Below are positions 2,910-32,464 of a stretch of 64,000 nt of DNA, one piece after another. Numbering within the stretch: position 1 is the first letter of the stretch; every line of letters begins with the position of its first letter. The notes under the pieces are model-generated. The model was given only the letters and a program-made list of their open reading frames with translations. It had not been told where the DNA came from and searched no databases. The translations under genes were made by a program, and so were the position numbers. The DNA is from Rhodocyclaceae bacterium (lineage in GTDB: Bacteria; Pseudomonadota; Gammaproteobacteria; Burkholderiales; Rhodocyclaceae): positions 1,226,344 through 1,290,343 of the forward strand of contig JASGKF010000002.1 of the NCBI GenBank assembly GCA_047600765.1, given 5' to 3'.

Positions 2910-3488
2910 TCAGCCCTTGAACAGCGCGGCGACGTCTACGTCCGCCTTCTCGTGGCCGGCGAACTCCAGCAGGGCGGCGCTCTGGAAGCCGAAGATGCGC
3001 GCAATGACGAGATCAGGGAACTGCTCGATGCGCACGTTGAAGATGTTCACCGACTCGTTGTAGAGCTCGCGGCGATCGGCGATGCCGTTTTCCAGCGTGG
3101 TGATGCGCGCCTGCAGCTGCAGGAAGTTCTCGTTGGCCTTGAGGTCAGGGTAGGCCTCAGCCACGGCGAACAGACGCCCCAGGCCGGCGCGCAGCGCACC
3201 TTCGGCTTCGCCCAGTGCGCCGATGTCCTGCGTGCTGCTGGCGGCCTGCACCTGGTTGCGGGCGGCAATGACGCGTTCCAGGGTGACCTGCTCGAAATCG
3301 CGGTACTGGCGGCAGACTTCGACGAGTTTGGGCAGTTCGTCGTGGCGTTGTTTGAGCAGTACGTCGATGTTGGCCCATGCCTTGGCGACGGCGTGTTTGA
3401 GCTGGACCAGTGCGTTGTAGACGAAGACGCCATACAGCACGACCAGAACGACGACGCCAAGAAACACGGCAGCACGAGTACTCATCAC
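2910..3488 (-). CDS. lemA: LemA family protein
   Basis: N-terminal TM helix, then YNALV...AWANIDVLLKQRHDELPKLV, AEAYPDLKANENFLQLQ and RRELYNESV...FP motifs. Confidence 0.92.
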   Translation of the reverse strand: MMSTRAAVFLGVVVLVVLYGVFVYNALVQLKHAVAKAWANIDVLLKQRHDELPKLVEVCRQYRDFEQVTLERVIAARNQVQAASSTQDIGALGEAEGALRAGLGRLFAVAEAYPDLKANENFLQLQARITTLENGIADRRELYNESVNIFNVRIEQFPDLVIARIFGFQSAALLEFAGHEKADVDVAALFKG

Positions 3489-3581
3489 GGGGCTCCAGCA
3501 GGGTATTTGCAGCGGAAGGTGCGCGGCGGTGTCGCCACGCGAACCACGCTGGAGTGTAAGGCCAATCCGCCGTCTGGCGGG

Positions 3582-4505
3582 TCAGCTGCGTGTATCGGGC
3601 AGCGGGATGAAGTCAGGCGCAGGGGCGGCTGCTTGTTGCTGCTGTGCGGGATTCGGCGTGGCCGGCACGGGATGTTCCGTGAGGGCGTCTTTGGGTACGT
3701 CAAGGCGGTGCAGCAATTGTTCGCGACCCATGTGGATCAGGTCGCCGATGGCTGTGAAGTCGTCGGGCAGGGCAGGGTCGTTCCAGCCGTTTGCCGAGTG
3801 GCGGGCGAGGTTGTTGGCCAGCACGACGTTGCGCACGCGCGGGTTGTTGGCGTGATCGTCGTCCATCAAGGTGATCAGCAATTCGGGCAACCGCCAGGCT
3901 TTGACCAGCGCCAGTTGAAGGTCGTGCATCGTGACGCCGAGGACGGCTTGCTGCGCCGTGGCGCTGCGCAGGCCCGGCGTGCGCTTCTGTTCGGCTTTGA
4001 CGCGCAGCATCAAAGCCGGCGCAAAGCACCAGCACAGCACTTCGGCGGCGTCGTGCAGCAGGGCGCCGACAGTGACTTCGTCGACATCCAGATCGTGGCG
4101 GATGATGGCCCAATCGCGCGCCCAGCTGGAGGCATTGCGGGCACGGTTGATGACCTTGACGACGCCAAGCAGGGCTTGGGGATGCGCCTGCAGCTTGTCT
4201 TCGACGCAGGGCAGATTGGAGAACTTGCGGAAGAACGGGGTGATGCCCAGCATCATGATGGCCCGCTCGATGGTCGTGATGTCGTGGTTCTGGGCGCTGC
4301 GCCGCGTCGCTTCGATATGGACGAGCACGCGCAGGGTCATCAGCGGATCCTGCAGCACGACCGCGGCTACCTGACGGCCACTGACCTTGTCTTCGTCAGC
4401 CGCCAGCTCCGCCAGCGCACGCACGGTCTTGCGCAGCACCGGCAGTTCGGTCTGACTAAAGTAGGCAATGTAGCTGTCGATACTCTGCAGTGGGGTTTCG
4501 ATCAT
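3582..4505 (-). CDS. Stand-alone HDOD domain protein
   Basis: VLQDPLMTLRVL, TTIERAIMMLG, ALLHDAAE and WRLPE motifs; probable start MIETPL at 4505, with the upstream part of the ORF treated as extension. Confidence 0.85.
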   Translation of the reverse strand: MIETPLQSIDSYIAYFSQTELPVLRKTVRALAELAADEDKVSGRQVAAVVLQDPLMTLRVLVHIEATRRSAQNHDITTIERAIMMLGITPFFRKFSNLPCVEDKLQAHPQALLGVVKVINRARNASSWARDWAIIRHDLDVDEVTVGALLHDAAEVLCWCFAPALMLRVKAEQKRTPGLRSATAQQAVLGVTMHDLQLALVKAWRLPELLITLMDDDHANNPRVRNVVLANNLARHSANGWNDPALPDDFTAIGDLIHMGREQLLHRLDVPKDALTEHPVPATPNPAQQQQAAAPAPDFIPLPDTRS

Positions 4506-4715
4506 GGTCAGGCTATATCCGGGTGCGACACACTCTCTTACGGCGCGGTTGGGGTCAGGCTTGAGCCCGGTCTGGCCTTGATTGCGACAAGGCGCCGCCA
4601 AGCGGCCGATTGCCGCCTGCTTCGACCAGTTGGGTTGTTGCCTGAAAAACACTTCGCACAATGCTTCGCGTTGCCGCAAGTCCGAAAACCTGATTTCTGC
4701 CCGAAAGGGTGTGTC

Positions 4716-4721
4716 TATAAT
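4716..4721 (+). promoter_or_regulatory. Possible sigma70 -10 box for the oxidoreductase gene
   Basis: Perfect TATAAT about 35 nt upstream of the TTG at 4757; no clear -35. Confidence 0.35.
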
Positions 4722-4756
4722 CCCGCGCAACCTCGGAATTCAAGCCGGAGTCGGAG

Positions 4757-5746
4757 TTGAAGTCATTCAAGGCATTTCTCGTGGAGCAGGACGGTGCAGC
4801 CGTCAGCGGTCGCTTCGTTGAACTCGACGAAACCAGGCTGGATGCTGGCGATGTGCTGATTCGCGTTACCTGCTCCAGTGTCAATTACAAGGACGCCCTT
4901 GCCGCGACCGGGCAGGGGCGCATCATCAAGCGCTTCCCCTGCGTTGGCGGCATCGATCTGGCCGGCGAGGTGGTCAGCAGCGCTGCCCCGCGTTTCCGTC
5001 CCGGCGACCGCGTGCTCGCCACCAGTTACGACCTGGGTGTCGCCCATCACGGCGGTTATTCCGAATACGCTCTTGTGCCTGGCGGCTGGGTCATGCCCTT
5101 GCCCGCAGGCCTCAGCGATTTCCAAAGCATGGCATTGGGCACGGCGGGGCTGACGGCGGCCATGGCCATCAATCGCATGGAAGACAATGGGCTCAAACCC
5201 GAAAACGGCCCGGTGCTGGTTTCAGGTGCCACGGGGGGAGTCGGCTCCCTCTCCATCGACATGCTTGCGGGGCGCGGATATGAAGTCGTCGCGCTGACCG
5301 GCAAGCCCGAGCAGAGCGAATGGTTGTGCAGCCTTGGGGCATCTCGTGTCATGCTGCGCAGCGAACTGCCCAGGGAAGTCCGTCCGCTGGACAAGGGATA
5401 CTGGGCGGGGGCCATCGATAATCTCGGTGGCGAGGTTCTGAGCTGGATCATCAGCAGCAGCAAACCGGGTGGTGTAATTGCCAGTATCGGTCTGGCTGGG
5501 GGAACGGATCTTCATACAACGGTCATGCCTTTCGTGTTACGTGGCGTATCGTTGATGGGGATAGACTCCGGTTATGCTGGCTTCGCTGTCAGGGAACGCG
5601 CATGGTCGCGTCTGGCGGCGGACCTGCGTCCCCGGGGGCTGGACACGATTGCGCTGGAAGAACCGTTTGAAAACCTGCCGCAGATTTTTGACCGGCTGTT
5701 GGCCGGACAGGGACACGGGCGGGTAGTAGTGCGGATCAGTCACTGA
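4757..5746 (+). CDS. acuI: MDR-family oxidoreductase, YhdH/AcuI (acryloyl-CoA reductase) type
   Basis: SSVNYKDALA, GIDLAGEV, LGTAGLTA, GATGGVGS and PFVLRGVSLMGIDS motifs; TTG start after GGAG. Confidence 0.8.
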   Translation: MKSFKAFLVEQDGAAVSGRFVELDETRLDAGDVLIRVTCSSVNYKDALAATGQGRIIKRFPCVGGIDLAGEVVSSAAPRFRPGDRVLATSYDLGVAHHGGYSEYALVPGGWVMPLPAGLSDFQSMALGTAGLTAAMAINRMEDNGLKPENGPVLVSGATGGVGSLSIDMLAGRGYEVVALTGKPEQSEWLCSLGASRVMLRSELPREVRPLDKGYWAGAIDNLGGEVLSWIISSSKPGGVIASIGLAGGTDLHTTVMPFVLRGVSLMGIDSGYAGFAVRERAWSRLAADLRPRGLDTIALEEPFENLPQIFDRLLAGQGHGRVVVRISH

Positions 5747-5787: not shown

Positions 5788-6925
5788 ATGACCGAAGTGG
5801 CCGCACAGTTGCCGCGCATCCTCATCGTGGACGACTCGCGCATGGTGCGCGCGTCGCTCATCAAGCAGATCCGCGACAAATTCGACGTCCGTGAAGAAGT
5901 CGATGGCGAGGCCGGCTGGCAATCGCTGCTGCTCGACCCGACGATCGAAGTCGTCATTTCAGATATCGGCATGCCACGCCTTGATGGTTTTGGCCTGCTG
6001 CAGCGGATTCGCGGTTCGCGTCTGGCACGCGTCGAACTGCTTGCCCGTCCTGATCATTTCGGGCGAAGACGAAAACGAAGCCCGCATGCGCGCCCAGGAG
6101 CTTGGCGCCACCGATTTCATTACCAAGGGCACGCCACGCGTCGAACTGCTGGCGCGTCTCGAAGCCCTTGCCAAGCTGGCGCAGACCCGTCGCGAACTCG
6201 AACAGAGCCGTGAGCAGCTCGTCCGCCGCAACCGTGGCGACGTCAGTGTCATGGTCATCGAGGTCGATCACTACGACCGCCTGTGCGAAACCTACGGCCA
6301 TAGTGTTGGCCAATTGGTTCATCGCAAGCTATCCAAGCTGTTGTCGGCCAAGGTCCGTAAGGAAGACACCATCGCTCACCTGGCTGAAGGCCAGTTCGCG
6401 GTGATCTCGCCTTCAGCCGATCTCGACGCCTGCGGCGCCTTTGCCTTGCGCCTGCGTCGCGCGATCGAAACCATCGTCATGACTTACAAGGAGCATCGCA
6501 TCCGTGTGAGCCTGACCGTCGGTCTGGCCAGCGCACACGGCGACGCTTCCGTGTCACTGGAGCATCTGCTGCAGACAGCGGCTGCCCGCGTGGCAGATGG
6601 TCGCAAGCTGGGTGGCAACCGTGTCGTCTCCGAATCCGGCGAGGTCACGACCGAGAACGTCGGGCGCTTCAGCCGTCTCGCCGTCAGCGTCGACCATGCG
6701 CTCACCCAGATCCGCACAGGCAGTGGCGATGAAGCCCGCAAACGCCTGCGCGAGCTGACTCAGACCCTGATGCCCTTGCTGGAGATGATGGAAGCCGAAT
6801 TCCATCTCGGTATTCCGTTGCTGGAACTGAGCGAAAAAGCCCAGATCACCAACATCGACATGCACACGGCAGCATCGACCAGCACAGTTGGATCACGCAC
6901 TGTCTGGCGCACAGGCGCGGGCTAA
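5788..6925 (+). pseudogene. Response regulator REC + degenerate GGDEF domain, split by a frameshift near 6034-6040
   Basis: ORF 5788 carries the REC N-half (ILIVDDS...VVISDIGMPRLDG). ORF 5891..6925, in another frame, continues with LPVLIISG...GATDFITK and a GGDEF-like domain whose motif position reads AEGQF. Confidence 0.75.
6026..6150 (+). repeat. 16-bp direct repeat CACGCGTCGAACTGCT at 6026-6041 and 6135-6150
   Basis: Read directly from the sequence; copies are 109 nt apart and the first overlaps the frameshift. Confidence 0.9.
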
Positions 6926-18949: not shown

Positions 18950-20478
18950 GTGCCACCTGGGTATCGGGGCGGAGCTTGCAACCACGGGTCGCCATCGCGG
19001 CGGCCGTTGCGATGGTTGCCATCATCCTGTTGGTGTTCCACGAAACGGCGCTCGGCGTGTTCCGTATCTGGATGCGCTCGGACACTTTCAATCACTGCCT
19101 GTTGGTGGTGCCGGTCAGCATTTGGCTGATGTGGGAGCGTCGGCGCGATCTGGTCTCGGCGGGTTTCCAGCCGGCCTTGTTCCCGCTGTTGCCTCTCGCC
19201 GGGGCGGCCTTGCTGTGGGTGTTCGGCGAGGCAATCAGTGCGGCTGTCGTATCGCATGCCGCGCTGGTGTTCATGGTGATTGCCGCCATATGGACCTGCT
19301 GGGGCCATCGTGCGAGCTGGCAGGTGCTGTTCCCGCTGTTTTTCCTGGTATTCGGCATCCCCTTTGGCGATTTCCTCGTGCCGATGCTGATGCATTACAC
19401 GGCTGAGTTCACGGTGGCGCTGTTGCGGCTGACGGGCATTCCCGTCTATCAGGAAGGGCAGAATTTCGTCATTCCGAGCGGCCGCTGGTCTGTCGTGGAG
19501 GCCTGCAGCGGCATCCGTTACCTGATCGCTTCGGTGATGGTGGGCGTGCTGTTCGCCTACCTCAATTACCGCAGCCTGACGCGTCGCCTGCTGTTCGTGG
19601 TGGCGTCGTTCGTAGTGCCTTTGCTGGCGAACTGGCTGCGTGCCTACATCATCGTGATGATGGGGCACCTGTCCGGCAACAGTCTGGCCGTGGGCGCCGA
19701 TCACCTGATCTATGGCTGGGTGTTCTTCGGCATCGTCATCGGCCTGCTGTTCTGGGTCGGCAATTTCTGGCGTGAAGACCATCTGCCGCAGGTGCGTCAG
19801 CGAGACTGGCACTGGCGCAGTGCCGGCCGGGTGGCGGTGCCGGCTGTCGTGGTGCTGGGGCTTGCTCTCGTGACGGTGGCAGTGCCGCGTCCCTTGCTGG
19901 GCTGGCTGATGGATGTGCCCGGGGCGGCGGACTATCGTATTCCTGCGGTCACCGTGTCGGGCTGGACTTCCGCTGTGCGTTCGGCGAAGGAGTGGAAGGC
20001 GAGTTTCCGCGGGTCGCGTGTCGAAGACGTGCAGACCTTCGCCAAGGGGCGCGACAAGGTGTCGGTGCAGCTGGCCTACTATGCGCGCCAGACCGAAGGA
20101 CGCGAGCTGGTGCAGTACGACAACTACCTCGTGCAGACCGATGATCCCTTGTGGCACCCGATGAACCGCAAGACGGTGACGGTGGCGCAGGGTGACCGCA
20201 CGCTGACATTCGAACGCGTCGAGCTGGCCGGTGCGGGTGGGCACCTTGTCGTGTTGCGCAGCTACTGGTTGGGCGAGAGTGTTACGCCGTCGGACAAGCT
20301 GGCCAAGCTGGATCTGCTGAAGGCTCGATTACTGCGCAGGCCGGATGATTCCGCCGGCGTTCTGCTGTGGACTTCGGTGGATAATTCGCCCGCGGATGCC
20401 GAGCAGAGGCTCGTCGCCTTCGCTACTGATAACTGGTCCGCCATCGAGGCTGCGCTGCTGCGCACGCCGCTCAAGTAG
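18946..20478 (+). CDS. xrtA: Exosortase A with C-terminal EpsI-like domain
   Basis: Multi-TM N-part with VVEACSGIRYL (catalytic Cys), NWLRAY (Arg) and DHLIYGW (His); periplasmic C-terminal domain. Confidence 0.95.
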   Translation: MSATWVSGRSLQPRVAIAAAVAMVAIILLVFHETALGVFRIWMRSDTFNHCLLVVPVSIWLMWERRRDLVSAGFQPALFPLLPLAGAALLWVFGEAISAAVVSHAALVFMVIAAIWTCWGHRASWQVLFPLFFLVFGIPFGDFLVPMLMHYTAEFTVALLRLTGIPVYQEGQNFVIPSGRWSVVEACSGIRYLIASVMVGVLFAYLNYRSLTRRLLFVVASFVVPLLANWLRAYIIVMMGHLSGNSLAVGADHLIYGWVFFGIVIGLLFWVGNFWREDHLPQVRQRDWHWRSAGRVAVPAVVVLGLALVTVAVPRPLLGWLMDVPGAADYRIPAVTVSGWTSAVRSAKEWKASFRGSRVEDVQTFAKGRDKVSVQLAYYARQTEGRELVQYDNYLVQTDDPLWHPMNRKTVTVAQGDRTLTFERVELAGAGGHLVVLRSYWLGESVTPSDKLAKLDLLKARLLRRPDDSAGVLLWTSVDNSPADAEQRLVAFATDNWSAIEAALLRTPLK

Positions 20479-27800: not shown

Positions 27801-28985
27801 ATGGCAAAGATCCGCACACTGCTGTTCTCGACGCTCTACCCGAGCAGCGTGCGGCCGAGTCATGGCATCTTCGTCGAGACCCGCCTGCGCGAACTGCTCG
27901 CCAGCGGTGAAGTCGAGACGCAAGTGGTTGCCCCCGTTCCATGGTTTCCGTTGACAGCCCCGCGCTTTGGTGACTGGGCGCAGATGGCAAGTACGCCGCA
28001 CGTGGAAACGCACAACGGCATCCAGGTGCACCATCCGCGTTACGTCCTACCGCCCAAGATTGGTATGAACGTAGCGCCGTGGATGCTGGCTTGGGGGGCG
28101 CGTGCGACGGTCGCGAAGCTGATTCGCGGCGGCTTCGATTTCGATCTCATCGACGCGCATTACTACTACCCGGACGGTGTGGCGGCAGCGATGCTGGCGC
28201 GCTGGTTCAACAAGCCCTTCGTTGTCACGGCGCGCGGCACCGATCTGAACCTCATCCCGCAGCATGCCTGGCCACGTCGTCTGATCAAACAGACGGCAGA
28301 AGCCGCAGCAGGCTCCATCGGCGTGTGTGGCGCCCTGATGGATGTGCTGCGAGACATGGGCGTCGATGCGCAGAAGCTGCACGTGATGCGCAATGGCGTC
28401 GACCTGCAGCGCTTTGTACCCGAAGACCGCCAGGCCGCGCGAGCAAAGCTGGGGTTGCAACAGGATGGGCGTTGGCTGGTCTCTGTCGGTCATCTCATCG
28501 AGCGCAAGGGGCACGACATCGCCATCGCCGCGCTCCCTTCGCTGCCTGCCGACGTGCGTCTGGCGATTGTTGGCGATGGTGTCGAACGCGCACGCCTTGT
28601 CGCGCAGGCGCAGCAGCTTGGCGTGACAGACCGCGTACATTTCGCTGGCTCGCGCCCGCAGACCGAACTCAAGTGGTGGTACAGCGCTGCGGATGCGCTG
28701 ACGCTGTGTTCCAGCCGAGAGGGCTGGGCGAACGTGCTGCTGGAGGCCATGGCTTGCGGTACGCCGGTGATTGCGACGAATATCTGGGGGACCCCGGAAG
28801 TCGTGTCGGATCCCTGTGCGGGTGAGTTGATGCAAGAGCGTAGTTCCACGGGCCTGTTACAGGCGTTTGAGAGACTGACGGCACGCGTGACGGATCGGGC
28901 GACGGTGCGTCGTTACGCCGAGGGCTTCTCCTGGCAGGCGACGACTAGCGGGCAACTGGCACTTTTCAGGAAAGCGAAGGGCTGA
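27801..28985 (+). CDS. GT4 glycosyltransferase
   Basis: IDAHYYYPDG, VTARGTD, VGHLIERKG, SREGWANVLLEAMACG. Confidence 0.9.
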   Translation: MAKIRTLLFSTLYPSSVRPSHGIFVETRLRELLASGEVETQVVAPVPWFPLTAPRFGDWAQMASTPHVETHNGIQVHHPRYVLPPKIGMNVAPWMLAWGARATVAKLIRGGFDFDLIDAHYYYPDGVAAAMLARWFNKPFVVTARGTDLNLIPQHAWPRRLIKQTAEAAAGSIGVCGALMDVLRDMGVDAQKLHVMRNGVDLQRFVPEDRQAARAKLGLQQDGRWLVSVGHLIERKGHDIAIAALPSLPADVRLAIVGDGVERARLVAQAQQLGVTDRVHFAGSRPQTELKWWYSAADALTLCSSREGWANVLLEAMACGTPVIATNIWGTPEVVSDPCAGELMQERSSTGLLQAFERLTARVTDRATVRRYAEGFSWQATTSGQLALFRKAKG

Positions 28986-28989
28986 AACG

Positions 28990-29160
28990 ATGGAAGCGAT
29001 CATCATGCTCGCAGACATCCTGTGCATGCTGGCGTTGTGTCTCAGCCTGGTGCGCCTGAGCCGCGGAAAGACGAAAGATCTGGGGGTCTTCAAGTACAAG
29101 CTGGAAGAAGGCGAACAACAGCCCGAAGACTCCAGTCGCAAGGGGAGCGAGCGTGCGTGA
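28990..29160 (+). CDS. 56-aa small membrane protein (missed by the ORF track)
   Basis: MEAIIMLADILCMLALCLSLVRLSRGKTKDLGVFKYKLEEGEQQPEDSSRKGSERA*; exactly fills the gap between the GT4 and the ligase, and its stop overlaps the GTG at 29153. Confidence 0.7.
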   Translation: MEAIIMLADILCMLALCLSLVRLSRGKTKDLGVFKYKLEEGEQQPEDSSRKGSERA

Positions 29161-30458
29161 CCTGGCAATGGCCATCGCGATGCTGGGTTTTGTGTACCTG
29201 GCATTTTCCAGCAATCTGGTCGCATACCTGCTGTGGGGGTGGACGGCTTTTGTAGCCATCAATTTCTACCTGTATGGCTTCCTGGCCAGCTTCCAGTTCA
29301 ACATGCTGTTCGCTGTCGTCAGTGTTGCCATGTTTGCCTTGGCAAAGGATCCCGAGAAGCTACCGTTCTTGCCAAACAGGGTCAGCATTTTGTTCCTGTT
29401 ATTTGCGGTGCAGTTGACGCTGACCTTCGTTTTTGCGTTGGACGGCAGCATCCAGTCTTACTTCTTCTGGACGCTTATCCTTAAAGTTCTGCTGTTCGGC
29501 ATCCTGATGCCTATGGTCATCACGACCAGGGTCCGCATCTACGCGATGGCGGTGACGTTGACCCTCGGTCTTGCCATGCACGGCGTGGTCGAAGGTGGCA
29601 AGTTCATCAATTCCGGCGGTGGACACCATGTCGTTGGCCTCCCCAAGTTCGGTGATAACAACCACTTCGCGTTGCTTGTTGTAATGGGTATGCCCTTGCT
29701 GATCTACATGTTCCAGCATTCAGTCAGCAAGCTCGTCAAACTCAGTACGGTGTTCGGCCTTATCTTTTCGGTGGCGGCGGTTGTGGGTACGCATTCACGT
29801 GGCGGCTTGCTGTCGATGATGCTGGCGGGGGGGTGGCTGGTGTGGAGCGGACGACGCAAGGGCGTCGGTATTGCTGCTTTGATTGCAGGCGCGGTGATCA
29901 TCGTTGCGACAGCGCCGGAGTCCTGGTCCGAGCGTATGAACACCATCAAGACAGCCGAGGAAGATTCCTCGTTCATGGGGCGGGTGGAGGCCTGGAAGGT
30001 GAGTTCCGCCATCGCACTGGCCCGTCCGCTGACAGGGGGGGGGATTCCATGGCGTCGAACATCGATCAGTCTGGGTGGAATATCGCGATAGTCCGAGCTT
30101 GCTGTCGAGCGTGGAAACGCCTTATACGCTGGCTGGGCGTGCCGCGCATAGTGCCTATTTCGAGGTGCTGGGCGACATGGGCTTCGTCGGACTGTTCCTC
30201 TTCCTGGCAATACTGATTACGCCGTTCCTGGCGCGCAACGAGATACGTCGGGTGGCCAAAGCCCATGGACCAGGTTTGATCTGGGCGTCCGATCTTGCAG
30301 ATACCCTGTCTGCAGTCATGTTCGCCTATGTCGTCGGTGCTGCAGCGCTGAGTGTGGCTTATTTTGAAGCCATGTATGCCATCGTGATGCTTATGGAGAC
30401 GCTGCGTCAGTATGTTCTGAGAACTACAAAAGCCGGCTATATGGGAGGCGCACTGTGA
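29153..30458 (+). pseudogene. Putative O-glycosylation ligase/polymerase, exosortase A-associated (O-antigen ligase family), frameshifted at a G9 tract
   Basis: ORF 29153..30091 has DNNHFAL, THSRGG and SFMGRVEAW. The C-terminal AAHSAYFEVLGDMGFVG lies in ORF 30075..30458. Removing one G from 30035-30043 joins them as LTGGGFHGVEHRSVWVEYRD (434 aa). Confidence 0.85.
30035..30043 (+). repeat. G9 homopolymer at the frameshift
   Basis: gacaGGGGGGGGGattccat read directly from the sequence. Confidence 0.95.
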
Positions 30459-32464
30459 AAATCCTGCAGTCTGCGTTGAGTGGCATTTTTGGCGGTGGTG
30501 AGCACGGCGCCCTGTCCGTACTGTCCTTTCATCGCATTCCGGTCAGGAAGTCTCCGCATATGCAGCAGGAGTTCGATCTCGAAGAGTTCGAACACATCCT
30601 CGATGTGCTGGAAGATGAGTGCCGGGTGTTGCCGCTGGATGAAGCGCTGGATGCCCTTAGCCGTGGTGTGTTGCCTGACAGGGCCGTGGCGTTGACGCTT
30701 GATGATGGTTACGCGGACTGGCGTGACGGTGTCGTGCCTGCCTTGTATCAGCGAGGCTTGCCGGCGACGTTCTTCATTGCTTGCGGTCAGCTGTCTGGGC
30801 AATTGCTTTGGTACGAACGCTTCCGTACGGCAATCTCCGTCAGCGCCAATCCTGATGCCCTGAAGCGTGTATTCGGTGACCTCAAGGTCGACGATGTCTG
30901 GAAATTGCCAGACCATGACCGGCCTTTCGCGCTTGAACGCGTGATCAAGTACGTGCCTTCGACGCAGCGCGAAGAGATTCTCGCCGCGCTCGAGGCCCTG
31001 GTTGGCGTACCGCAACCTGAGCAATCCGTTTTTCTCTCGGAGGCCGATGTGCGTGCATTCGCATCCATGGGCTTCAGCATCGGTGCGCATACCTTCACCC
31101 ATCCCATCCTGTCGCGCTGTCAGCTGAGTGAGGCGCGTGACGAGATTGCAGGCAGCAAGGAATATCTCGAAGGGTTGATCCGCGAGAAGGTTTCGGGTTT
31201 TGCCTATCCGAATGGCAAGCCACTGCAGGACTTCGATGCGTCCCACGTAGAGCTCGTGCGGCAAGCTGGTTATCGCTACGCCGTGAGCACGGAACGTGGC
31301 GTAGCGACGCGTCACAGCGCACGGTTCGCCATTCCGCGCTTCGGGCCATGGAGTAGCGGCAAGGTCTCACTTCTCAGGCATCTGGCAATGAATCGATTTG
31401 AAAAGGGCGGGGCGATTGCCGGCGCGTATGGTGAGGCGTTGCGAGACTCCGCTGGATCTGCCCAGACAGCAGTTCAGGTGGCGTCAGAGGTGGCGACACC
31501 CATAGCGAGCACTCCGACGGTGTCGGTGGTCATTCCCGTCTACAACTGCTTTGATTTGCTGGGCGAAGCCATCGACAGCGTGCTCGCGCAGCAGCCGCTG
31601 CCCATGGAGATCATCGTCGTGAACGATGGATCGAGTGACGGTGACTATCAGGAGTTCGCGCGCCGCTACCCGCTGGTGCGCGTGATCGACAAGCCCAATT
31701 CGGGTGTGTCGGCATCGCGGAATCTGGCTGTGCGTGAAGCACGTGGCGATCTGATCGCCTTCCTCGATGCCGATGATGTGTGGTTGCCGGGCAAGCTTGC
31801 TGCGCAGTTGAAAGCCTTTGCCGACCGTCCGGATGCAGGCGTGGTGTTCGGGCGCTTTGAGAAGTGGTTTGCGGATGCGACGGGTAGCTTCAAGCCCTGG
31901 CGTGAGTTTGGTGTCGTGCCGGAAAATGCAGGCATCGAACCCGAGCGTTCTGGTTGGCTGTTTGGCAAGCTGATGATGGGCTTGCTGGTCGGCATGAATA
32001 CGGCCGTGGTCCGGCGCGATCTGTTGCTGGCGTCTGGCGGTTTTGACGAGAAGCGCAAGATCGGCGAGGACTACGAGCTCTGGCTGCGCCTGTCACGCGA
32101 GACGCCGATGCTGTCGATCCGCAACGTGGTCGCGCTTTACCGCATGAGGGCTGGTAGCGCCATGCACGGCTTGCGGGACAAGAATGAACTGGCCGCTTTG
32201 CTGGAAGAGATCCGCCAGCGTTGGGGCCTGGAAGGGCCACACTTCTCAGGCGTGACGGACTCCGCGTTCCGCAAGCGCCTGGCGCAAGTGCATTTCGAGC
32301 ATGGTTACAACCATGTGTGGCGCGGGGCGCGTCGCGTTGCACATCAGTCCTTCGTCGCCGCGCTGGGCAACGCGCCCCAGAATTCGCGTGCGCGCCTGTA
32401 CGCCATGCTGACGCGTACGCCACTGACAACAGCGATGATCCGCTGGGTGGCGAGACGTTCATGA
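30455..32464 (+). CDS. Fusion of polysaccharide deacetylase (NodB/CE4-like) and GT2 glycosyltransferase
   Basis: N-part: LTLDDGYAD, ATFFI, IGAHTFTHPILS, FAYPNG. C-part: VSVVIPVYN, VVNDGSSD, IAFLDADDVW, GEDYELWLR. Confidence 0.85.
   Translation: MKILQSALSGIFGGGEHGALSVLSFHRIPVRKSPHMQQEFDLEEFEHILDVLEDECRVLPLDEALDALSRGVLPDRAVALTLDDGYADWRDGVVPALYQRGLPATFFIACGQLSGQLLWYERFRTAISVSANPDALKRVFGDLKVDDVWKLPDHDRPFALERVIKYVPSTQREEILAALEALVGVPQPEQSVFLSEADVRAFASMGFSIGAHTFTHPILSRCQLSEARDEIAGSKEYLEGLIREKVSGFAYPNGKPLQDFDASHVELVRQAGYRYAVSTERGVATRHSARFAIPRFGPWSSGKVSLLRHLAMNRFEKGGAIAGAYGEALRDSAGSAQTAVQVASEVATPIASTPTVSVVIPVYNCFDLLGEAIDSVLAQQPLPMEIIVVNDGSSDGDYQEFARRYPLVRVIDKPNSGVSASRNLAVREARGDLIAFLDADDVWLPGKLAAQLKAFADRPDAGVVFGRFEKWFADATGSFKPWREFGVVPENAGIEPERSGWLFGKLMMGLLVGMNTAVVRRDLLLASGGFDEKRKIGEDYELWLRLSRETPMLSIRNVVALYRMRAGSAMHGLRDKNELAALLEEIRQRWGLEGPHFSGVTDSAFRKRLAQVHFEHGYNHVWRGARRVAHQSFVAALGNAPQNSRARLYAMLTRTPLTTAMIRWVARRS

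Follow-up and report, generated by a model that had tools for sequence, protein, structure and literature searches.

A G-tract frameshift in a putative exosortase-A-associated O-glycosylation ligase gene is more likely an assembly artefact than a phase-variable switch

The gene for a putative O-glycosylation ligase is split at a tract of nine consecutive Gs, and the extra base at this tract is probably an assembly artefact (a probability of roughly 0.65 in our estimation); the phase-variable switch that had been proposed from the letters of the DNA is not demonstrated. Since extra single bases split about one in 20 genes of this assembly, the 'switch' is more likely to be a sequencing artefact than a biological device, and we infer that this particular base belongs to the same class of errors. 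The window, by which we mean the whole 64,000-nucleotide stretch of DNA that was analysed, lies on contig 2 of a two-contig, 4.12-Mb genome (63% G+C) from a Viridibacterium relative. The nearest species genome, that of Viridibacterium curvum JCM 18715, served as the reference.

The nine Gs can be read directly in the sequence at window positions 30035-30043 of the forward strand, and the ORF list ends the gene prematurely at 30091, both as the sequence-only reading had stated. The relevant features of the gene are the following:

29153..30091, forward strand: 5' piece of the split TIGR03097/Wzy_C gene, 312 aa as assembled, with a GTG start and a premature TAG at 30089-30091 (ORF list).
29827..29833, forward strand: second G run in the same gene, G7 (GCG GGG GGG TGG), in frame according to the sequence, the census and the frame test; V. 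curvum has GCT GGC GGC TGG.
30035..30043, forward strand: G9 homopolymer in the conserved Gly-Gly-Gly (LTGGGF) motif and site of the frame change; it gives a single gap against V. curvum, and the flanking residues match once one base is removed.
30044..30458, forward strand: remainder (3') of the gene, read in the +1 frame; the ORF list gives it as 30075..30458 (127 aa), and it encodes the invariant AAHSxYFEVLGD loop together with the final three transmembrane helices.
30054..30060, forward strand: GTCGAAC, in frame (GTC GAA CAT, or VEH, as in V. curvum) by sequence, alignment and 7-mer scan; not the cause of the break.

The tract occupies codons 295-297 of the ligase gene, where its length would set an ON or an OFF frame. 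Shortening it by one base yields an intact 434-aa product (the read-through, P0001), as had been claimed for eight Gs, and the native stop at 30456-30458 is the one reached by the frame of 30075..30458. The 312-aa piece matches positions 1-298 of the TIGR03097 profile with 205.5 bits (cut-off 188.1), the 127-aa piece matches positions 311-406 with 77.6 bits, and the read-through matches positions 1-406 of 408 with 294.6 bits. Since the pieces cover consecutive parts of a profile that the read-through covers as a whole, this is one gene, broken exactly at the G tract. In Pfam, the 312-aa piece contains DUF5935 at 1-188 and Wzy_C at 202-300, truncated at profile position 105 of 149, and the read-through contains DUF5935 at residues 2-187 and Wzy_C (PF04932) at 202-351 with 75.6 bits. 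Residue 297, where the gene breaks, is within the Wzy_C domain.

Protein alignment confines the extra base to A30034-G9-A30044: GGGFHGVEH aligns with V. curvum on both sides. Removal of a G, of A30034 or of A30044 restores the LTGGGF motif equally well, so in truth the tract may be G8 or an in-frame G9. We considered the GTCGAAC motif, 11 nt beyond the tract, as the cause of the break and rejected it, because the FHGVEH that lies between it and the tract already matches in the restored frame.

The uninterrupted frame of about 430-450 aa that characterizes the family is absent from the assembly, which has 312 aa and 127 aa instead. All 120 homologues among the matches listed, the window's own product aside, are 424-464 aa long. 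An alignment of 33 sequences has 49 invariant residues, 15 of which lie after the break (L317, A330, H332, S333, F336, E337, G340, D341, G343, G346, W377, A378, Y403, E405 and Y408). H332, the histidine of the conserved periplasmic loop, is invariant in 33 of 33 sequences; with S333 it is among the residues lost, which bears out the earlier claim that an HS-containing loop disappears from the product. An AlphaFold2 model built on 33 homologues has a mean pLDDT of 87.1 and a pTM of 0.87, and in it the break removes the last three long helices (334-371, 373-396 and 405-433). Given the loss of 15 invariant residues and three helices, alignment and model together indicate that the truncated product would almost certainly be inactive.

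The surroundings of the ligase gene comprise the following features:

19003..19776, forward strand (contig 2, 1245346-1246119): exosortase XrtA (TIGR03109, 340.6 bits, cut-off 208).
27801..28985, forward strand: GT4 glycosyltransferase, conserved upstream neighbour (NCBIfam matches; the same neighbour in the homologous loci L082 and L083).
28990..29160, forward strand: small hydrophobic ORF of 56 aa with an 8-nt overlap with the ligase start (ORF list; L082 and L083 have a called gene of 54-55 aa at this position).
30455..32464, forward strand: polysaccharide deacetylase-GT2 fusion, conserved downstream neighbour, whose start overlaps the ligase stop (ORF list, NCBIfam and homologous locus).

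XrtA lies 10 kb upstream of the ligase gene and, on its profile match, defines the locus as an exosortase-A/PEP-CTERM EPS cluster; hits for PEP-CTERM/XrtA-type glycosyltransferases are adjacent. The order GT4, 54-56-aa ORF, ligase and deacetylase-GT2 is kept in L082 and L083, the two nearest metagenomic homologues, and the 56-aa ORF could encode a small, conserved membrane protein that partners the ligase. As had been claimed for the locus, the ligase gene is the sole Wzy_C gene within the window. Two more Wzy_C genes stand in tandem on the other contig (contig 1, 1608734-1610406); their open frames encode 447 and 484 aa, and they are separate genes rather than a frameshifted pair. PEP-CTERM/exosortase EPS loci have been experimentally tied to floc formation in Aquincola and Zoogloea (PMC9850573).

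The assignment to TIGR03097 (PEP_O_lig_1, putative O-glycosylation ligase, exosortase A system-associated) is supported by the score, the proximity of XrtA and the conserved neighbourhood. The model is of the hypoth_equivalog type, which means that the function of the family is itself predicted, and the window gene differs from the family in being split, as assembled, at residue 297. Structure adds a more distant relationship. Searching PDB sequences with the protein and with a 33-sequence profile gave no match, and it was by fold search alone that the WaaL O-antigen ligase of Cupriavidus metallidurans (PDB 7TPG, chain 7TPG_B) was found, as the only significant PDB fold match (Foldseek E 3.1e-6, probability 1.00, TM 0.59/0.62), with RodA next. 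The model of the window protein shares the fold of WaaL as well as a Wzy_C domain at 202-351. However, it has only 14% sequence identity to WaaL, contains an N-terminal DUF5935 region and presumably uses an acceptor other than lipid A-core. Profile score, Wzy_C domain and WaaL fold thus agree with the ligase or polymerase type that had been proposed from the letters. The product would be a putative inner-membrane enzyme with a periplasmic catalytic loop that transfers or polymerises an undecaprenyl-PP-linked glycan; its predicted role is either to place glycan onto PEP-CTERM proteins or to act as the EPS repeat-unit polymerase.

Comparison with V. curvum indicates that the gene is still constrained. 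Upstream of the tract, dN/dS is 0.04; downstream, pN is 0.08 and pS is 0.75 (saturated), and the restored frame is free of stops. Over the 137 codons that follow the break, protein identity is 89%, and the frameshift is followed by no compensating change. These values show strong purifying selection on the part after the break, and the frameshift is artefactual, very recent or reversible. An old, decaying pseudogene would also account for an interrupted gene, but the upstream dN/dS and the conservation of the 137 stop-free codons argue against one, and the absence of stops together with low pN at saturated pS excludes it; we consider this reading extremely improbable. Going by sequence comparison and the structural model, the gene is an ordinary member, maintained by selection, of the exosortase-A-associated Wzy_C/WaaL-fold family.

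The tract itself is not maintained in related species. The orthologue of V. curvum is intact (92% protein and 82% DNA identity) and has ACG GGG GGC GGC at the Gly-Gly-Gly motif, that is, G6. Homologues with 71% and 66% identity have GGT GGT GGC and GGA GGT GGA, in which no run exceeds 4-5. When 53 homologous loci are compared, the motif's longest run measures 2 in 26 loci, 3 in 15, 5 in seven, 6 in four and 8 in one; a run of at most 6 was stated for 51 of the 53 loci, and the run-length tally gives 52. The single G8 locus belongs to an Accumulibacter MAG and has the same codons, GGG GGG GGA, in frame. To judge from these run lengths and the lone in-frame G8, codon choice at a conserved GGG tripeptide has produced the tract sporadically; it is not a maintained feature. 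A comparison of tract length in related genomes had been put forward as a check on the switch; now run over these 53 loci, it finds that the long tract is not conserved, and the phase-variable reading gains no support from it.

Codon choice in the tract is unusual, as the sequence-only reading had noticed. Genome-wide, GGC is preferred, GGG makes up 8% of Gly codons, and the shares of GGA and ACA are 3% and 6%; there are 16 GGG-GGG codon pairs where 33 would be expected, and the ligase gene has two of them. Within this gene, GC3 is 0.69, seven of 40 Gly codons are GGG, and a G8 would arise by chance at a GGG tripeptide with a probability of about 3%. We looked for a second assembly of the species by exact-protein look-up of the neighbouring GT4 and by two metagenome pattern scans across the tract, and found none. 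A search of 5.8 billion proteins returned only the window's own 312-aa product, the next match among those listed having 71% identity.

Several of these observations bear on the idea of a slipped-strand contingency locus, in which G8 (ON) and G9 (OFF) would reversibly switch the only Wzy_C enzyme of the XrtA locus and hence the formation of flocs or bound EPS. Poly-G and poly-C tracts control phase-variable glycan genes such as siaD and pgl of Neisseria meningitidis and the LOS, capsule and flagellar glycosylation genes of Campylobacter jejuni. The window gene resembles these: it is a surface-glycan gene whose coding region contains a G tract that is in frame at one length and out of frame at the next. 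An intact and constrained part after the break is what a reversible state would predict, rare codons make up the tract in a genome that prefers GGC, and a second run, G7, lies in the same gene. However, the Neisseria and Campylobacter tracts recur across strains, vary within cultures and number dozens per genome, whereas the tract in the window is known from one assembly, at its length as assembled, with no length variation in evidence; it is absent in the closest species, where the G6 is interrupted, and in the 71% and 66% homologues. The chance figure of about 3% from the gene's own codon usage also counts against a contingency locus.

The quality of the assembly supports the favoured reading. 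Marker completeness is 93.0%, compared with 99-100% in relatives assembled as one or two contigs. We compared ORFs from V. curvum (288 high-GC3 ORFs on 400 kb of its syntenic contig) with the window's genome using tblastn; 242 had an orthologue, and 14 of these had adjacent matches in different frames. Two antisense shadows of other entries were removed from the 14, as was r116, a candidate split gene whose ORF is an antisense shadow lying across the argB/MBOAT intergenic region. This leaves 11 truly split genes among 242 (4.5%), every one with a single extra base in the window's genome. They include NrdJ (B12-dependent ribonucleotide reductase), CheA, a VC_2705-family Na/solute symporter, tagaturonate reductase, a TRZ/ATZ hydrolase and a ParA-like ATPase. 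That NrdJ, CheA and the symporter (contig 2, 1610286-1613526, 1409471-1411520 and 1422744-1424754, respectively) are each split by a +1 change argues that the insertions are not biological. A nucleotide alignment of 347.5 kb with V. curvum likewise contains 52 isolated 1-bp insertions in the window's genome versus 20 deletions. The reverse comparison, of ORFs from the window's genome against V. curvum, is confounded by stop-to-stop ORF extensions and provides no clean error rate for V. curvum.

Most of these insertions share a motif. Eight of the 11 breaks coincide with GTNGAAC or the complementary GTTCNAC; at these places V. curvum has the 6-mer, which lacks the duplicated base. The insertion type is GT[ACT]GAC to GT[ACT]GAAC (on the other strand, GTC[AGT]AC to GTTC[AGT]AC), mostly a duplication of A. 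In a genome-wide GC3 phase test, informative GTNGAAC/GTTCNAC sites have a +1 shift in 10.3% of cases versus a -1 shift in 3.9%, while three control motifs, like the parent 6-mer, stay at 3.3-4.8% in both directions; a fourth control, GTNCAAC/GTTGNAC, which shares GTTGAAC with the target motif, gives 7.9% versus 4.4%. A scan of every 7-mer, made without bias, placed GTCGAAC (72 +1 versus 22 -1 shifts), GTAGAAC (29 versus 8) and GTTGAAC (29 versus 11) among the top four by +1 excess, in first, joint second and fourth place. By extrapolation from the informative half of the sites, there are about 180 motif insertions genome-wide, at some 4-5% of GT[ACT]GAC sites and splitting about 3% of genes; the total comes to about 200 +1 artefacts, about a quarter of which lie outside the motif.

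Translational recoding or quadruplet decoding, or transcriptional recoding, was considered as a source of the +1 sites and rejected. The motif is symmetric by orientation relative to the coding strand (67 versus 64), and this symmetry excludes recoding and points to a sequencing signature at the DNA level. The +1 insertions are most simply read as systematic errors of base-calling or consensus that arose at a modified motif in a long-read assembly without polishing; the modification is possibly m6A in GTHGAC. Nanopore consensus errors are known to cluster first at methylation motifs and next at homopolymers (PMC6591954), and long-read consensus errors fragment genes (PMC9262707). The errors in the window's genome resemble those described in being strand-symmetric, motif-bound single-base changes that fragment genes and in coming with low completeness despite high contiguity, but they differ in being insertions, mostly duplications of A, and a long-read platform is here presumed.

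Examples of motif insertions are found on contig 2 at 1221066, 1424301, 1433198, 1538762, 1612142 and 1622610, and near window position 6033. The last apparently splits a GGDEF diguanylate cyclase of the exosortase locus (window 5788-6925) into the ORFs 5788..6213 and 5891..6925 at a GTCGAAC where V. curvum has one base fewer. Two further insertions relative to V. curvum, at window positions 4758 (at the junction of 2952..4760 and 4757..5746) and 49609 (argB/MBOAT intergenic), have no evident coding effect.

The G9 tract is not of the motif class, and we therefore also surveyed homopolymers genome-wide. The 4.12-Mb genome has 15 G/C runs of at least 8 (ten 8-mers, four 9-mers and one 10-mer), about one-third of them intergenic or terminator-like. 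Read by eye, nine of nine coding 8-mers are in frame, among them those at contig 2, 551707, 623513 and 1353607. Only two G/C 9-mers are coding, and both are out of frame, each equal to an in-frame 8-mer plus one base. The second of these (contig 1, 1547166-1547174), a C9 when read on the gene strand, splits the gene for a conserved receiver-domain protein (about 360 aa); this gene adjoins one for a HATPase-type protein in a low-GC island. The in-frame state of the run is C8: more than 100 homologues of full length (about 360 aa) have YFVPPLK where the assembly reads YFVPPP and then shifts. In the same island, 2.1 kb from the C9, an A10 (contig 1, 1545051-1545060) comes immediately after the start codon of a gene for a dcm-like cytosine methyltransferase (ATG AAA AAA AAA ACC) and is in frame. 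The A10 and the C9, lying together in one defence-type island, could represent a real phase-variable module or a coincidence.

Shorter runs are clean. The GC3 phase test found no +1 excess at G/C runs of 4-7, no frameshifted 7- or 8-mers were found among the 55 G/C 7-mers and the coding 8-mers, and no slipped 6- or 7-mers occur in the approximately 242 compared genes or among the 55 G/C 7-mers. The GC3 phase test is too noisy for single homopolymer sites, and the three strongest G/C 7-mer 'frameshifts' that it suggested turned out to be ordinary gene junctions, such as rplW/rplB.

For the contingency reading, this survey has two sides. That the other out-of-frame 9-mer also lies in an accessory island, 2 kb from the dcm-like A10, and that shorter homopolymers are correct in this assembly, speak for it; the small number of long G/C tracts, 15 of at least 8 in 4.1 Mb, amounts to no wider set, and the assembly is demonstrably rich in +1 artefacts. 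Taken together, a reversible switch is distinctly unlikely, and we have the same strong doubts about a toggle by which cells would pass between the floc-bound and the free-living state, perhaps in concert with the island of the A10 dcm-like and C9 receiver-domain genes.

A real but non-adaptive +1 slip is also rather improbable. It would be a recent, inactivated allele, fixed in the clone or in the majority in the sampled population, and the gene a young pseudogene arising, for example, from laboratory passage or relaxed selection for EPS. Homopolymer slippage is the commonest route to frameshift pseudogenes, and the loss of 15 invariant residues and three helices with no compensating change fits such an allele. 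Against it stand the same arguments that support an artefact, and the absence of slipped 6- and 7-mers from the compared genes and the 55 G/C 7-mers, which would be expected if slippage had accumulated. A genuine slipped OFF allele of either kind, adaptive or not, is a tentative possibility.

Under the artefact reading, the extra base would be a consensus error of an unpolished long-read assembly, and the true sequence would be in frame, as ACA GGG GGG GGA (G8) or as an in-frame G9 if a flanking A is spurious. In its favour are the low completeness, the 11 split genes, the systematic motif insertions and the uniform +1 direction; the step from no errors in 7- and 8-mers to two of two in 9-mers; the lack of degeneration; and the absence of a conserved tract in relatives. 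Other findings weigh against it. The dominant assembly error is motif-specific, and the shorter homopolymers and the A10 are called in frame. Homopolymer errors in long reads are mostly under-calls (PMC11649196), whereas the G9 would be an over-call. Both out-of-frame 9-mers fall in accessory genes of contingency-type classes, one a surface-glycan gene and the other in a low-GC island beside a DNA methyltransferase, and the ligase gene has its two GGG-GGG pairs although these are under-represented genome-wide. Our odds weigh the background of about 200 artefacts, the step from 7/8-mers to 9-mers, the uniform direction and the accessory nature of both genes. The sequence-only reading had called a sequencing error an equally live explanation of the G9; the error explanation is strengthened by the 4.5% of genes with a +1 change and by both coding 9-mers being an 8-mer plus one base, and it is now favoured rather than of equal standing.

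As it stands, the main value of this result is cautionary. The assembly contains about 200 spurious +1 frameshifts, and any finding of a frameshift, split gene, pseudogene or recoding in this genome is suspect without read-level confirmation. A tract that proved real and variable would constitute the first phase-variable control reported for a floc-forming exosortase/PEP-CTERM system, with relevance to sludge flocculation.
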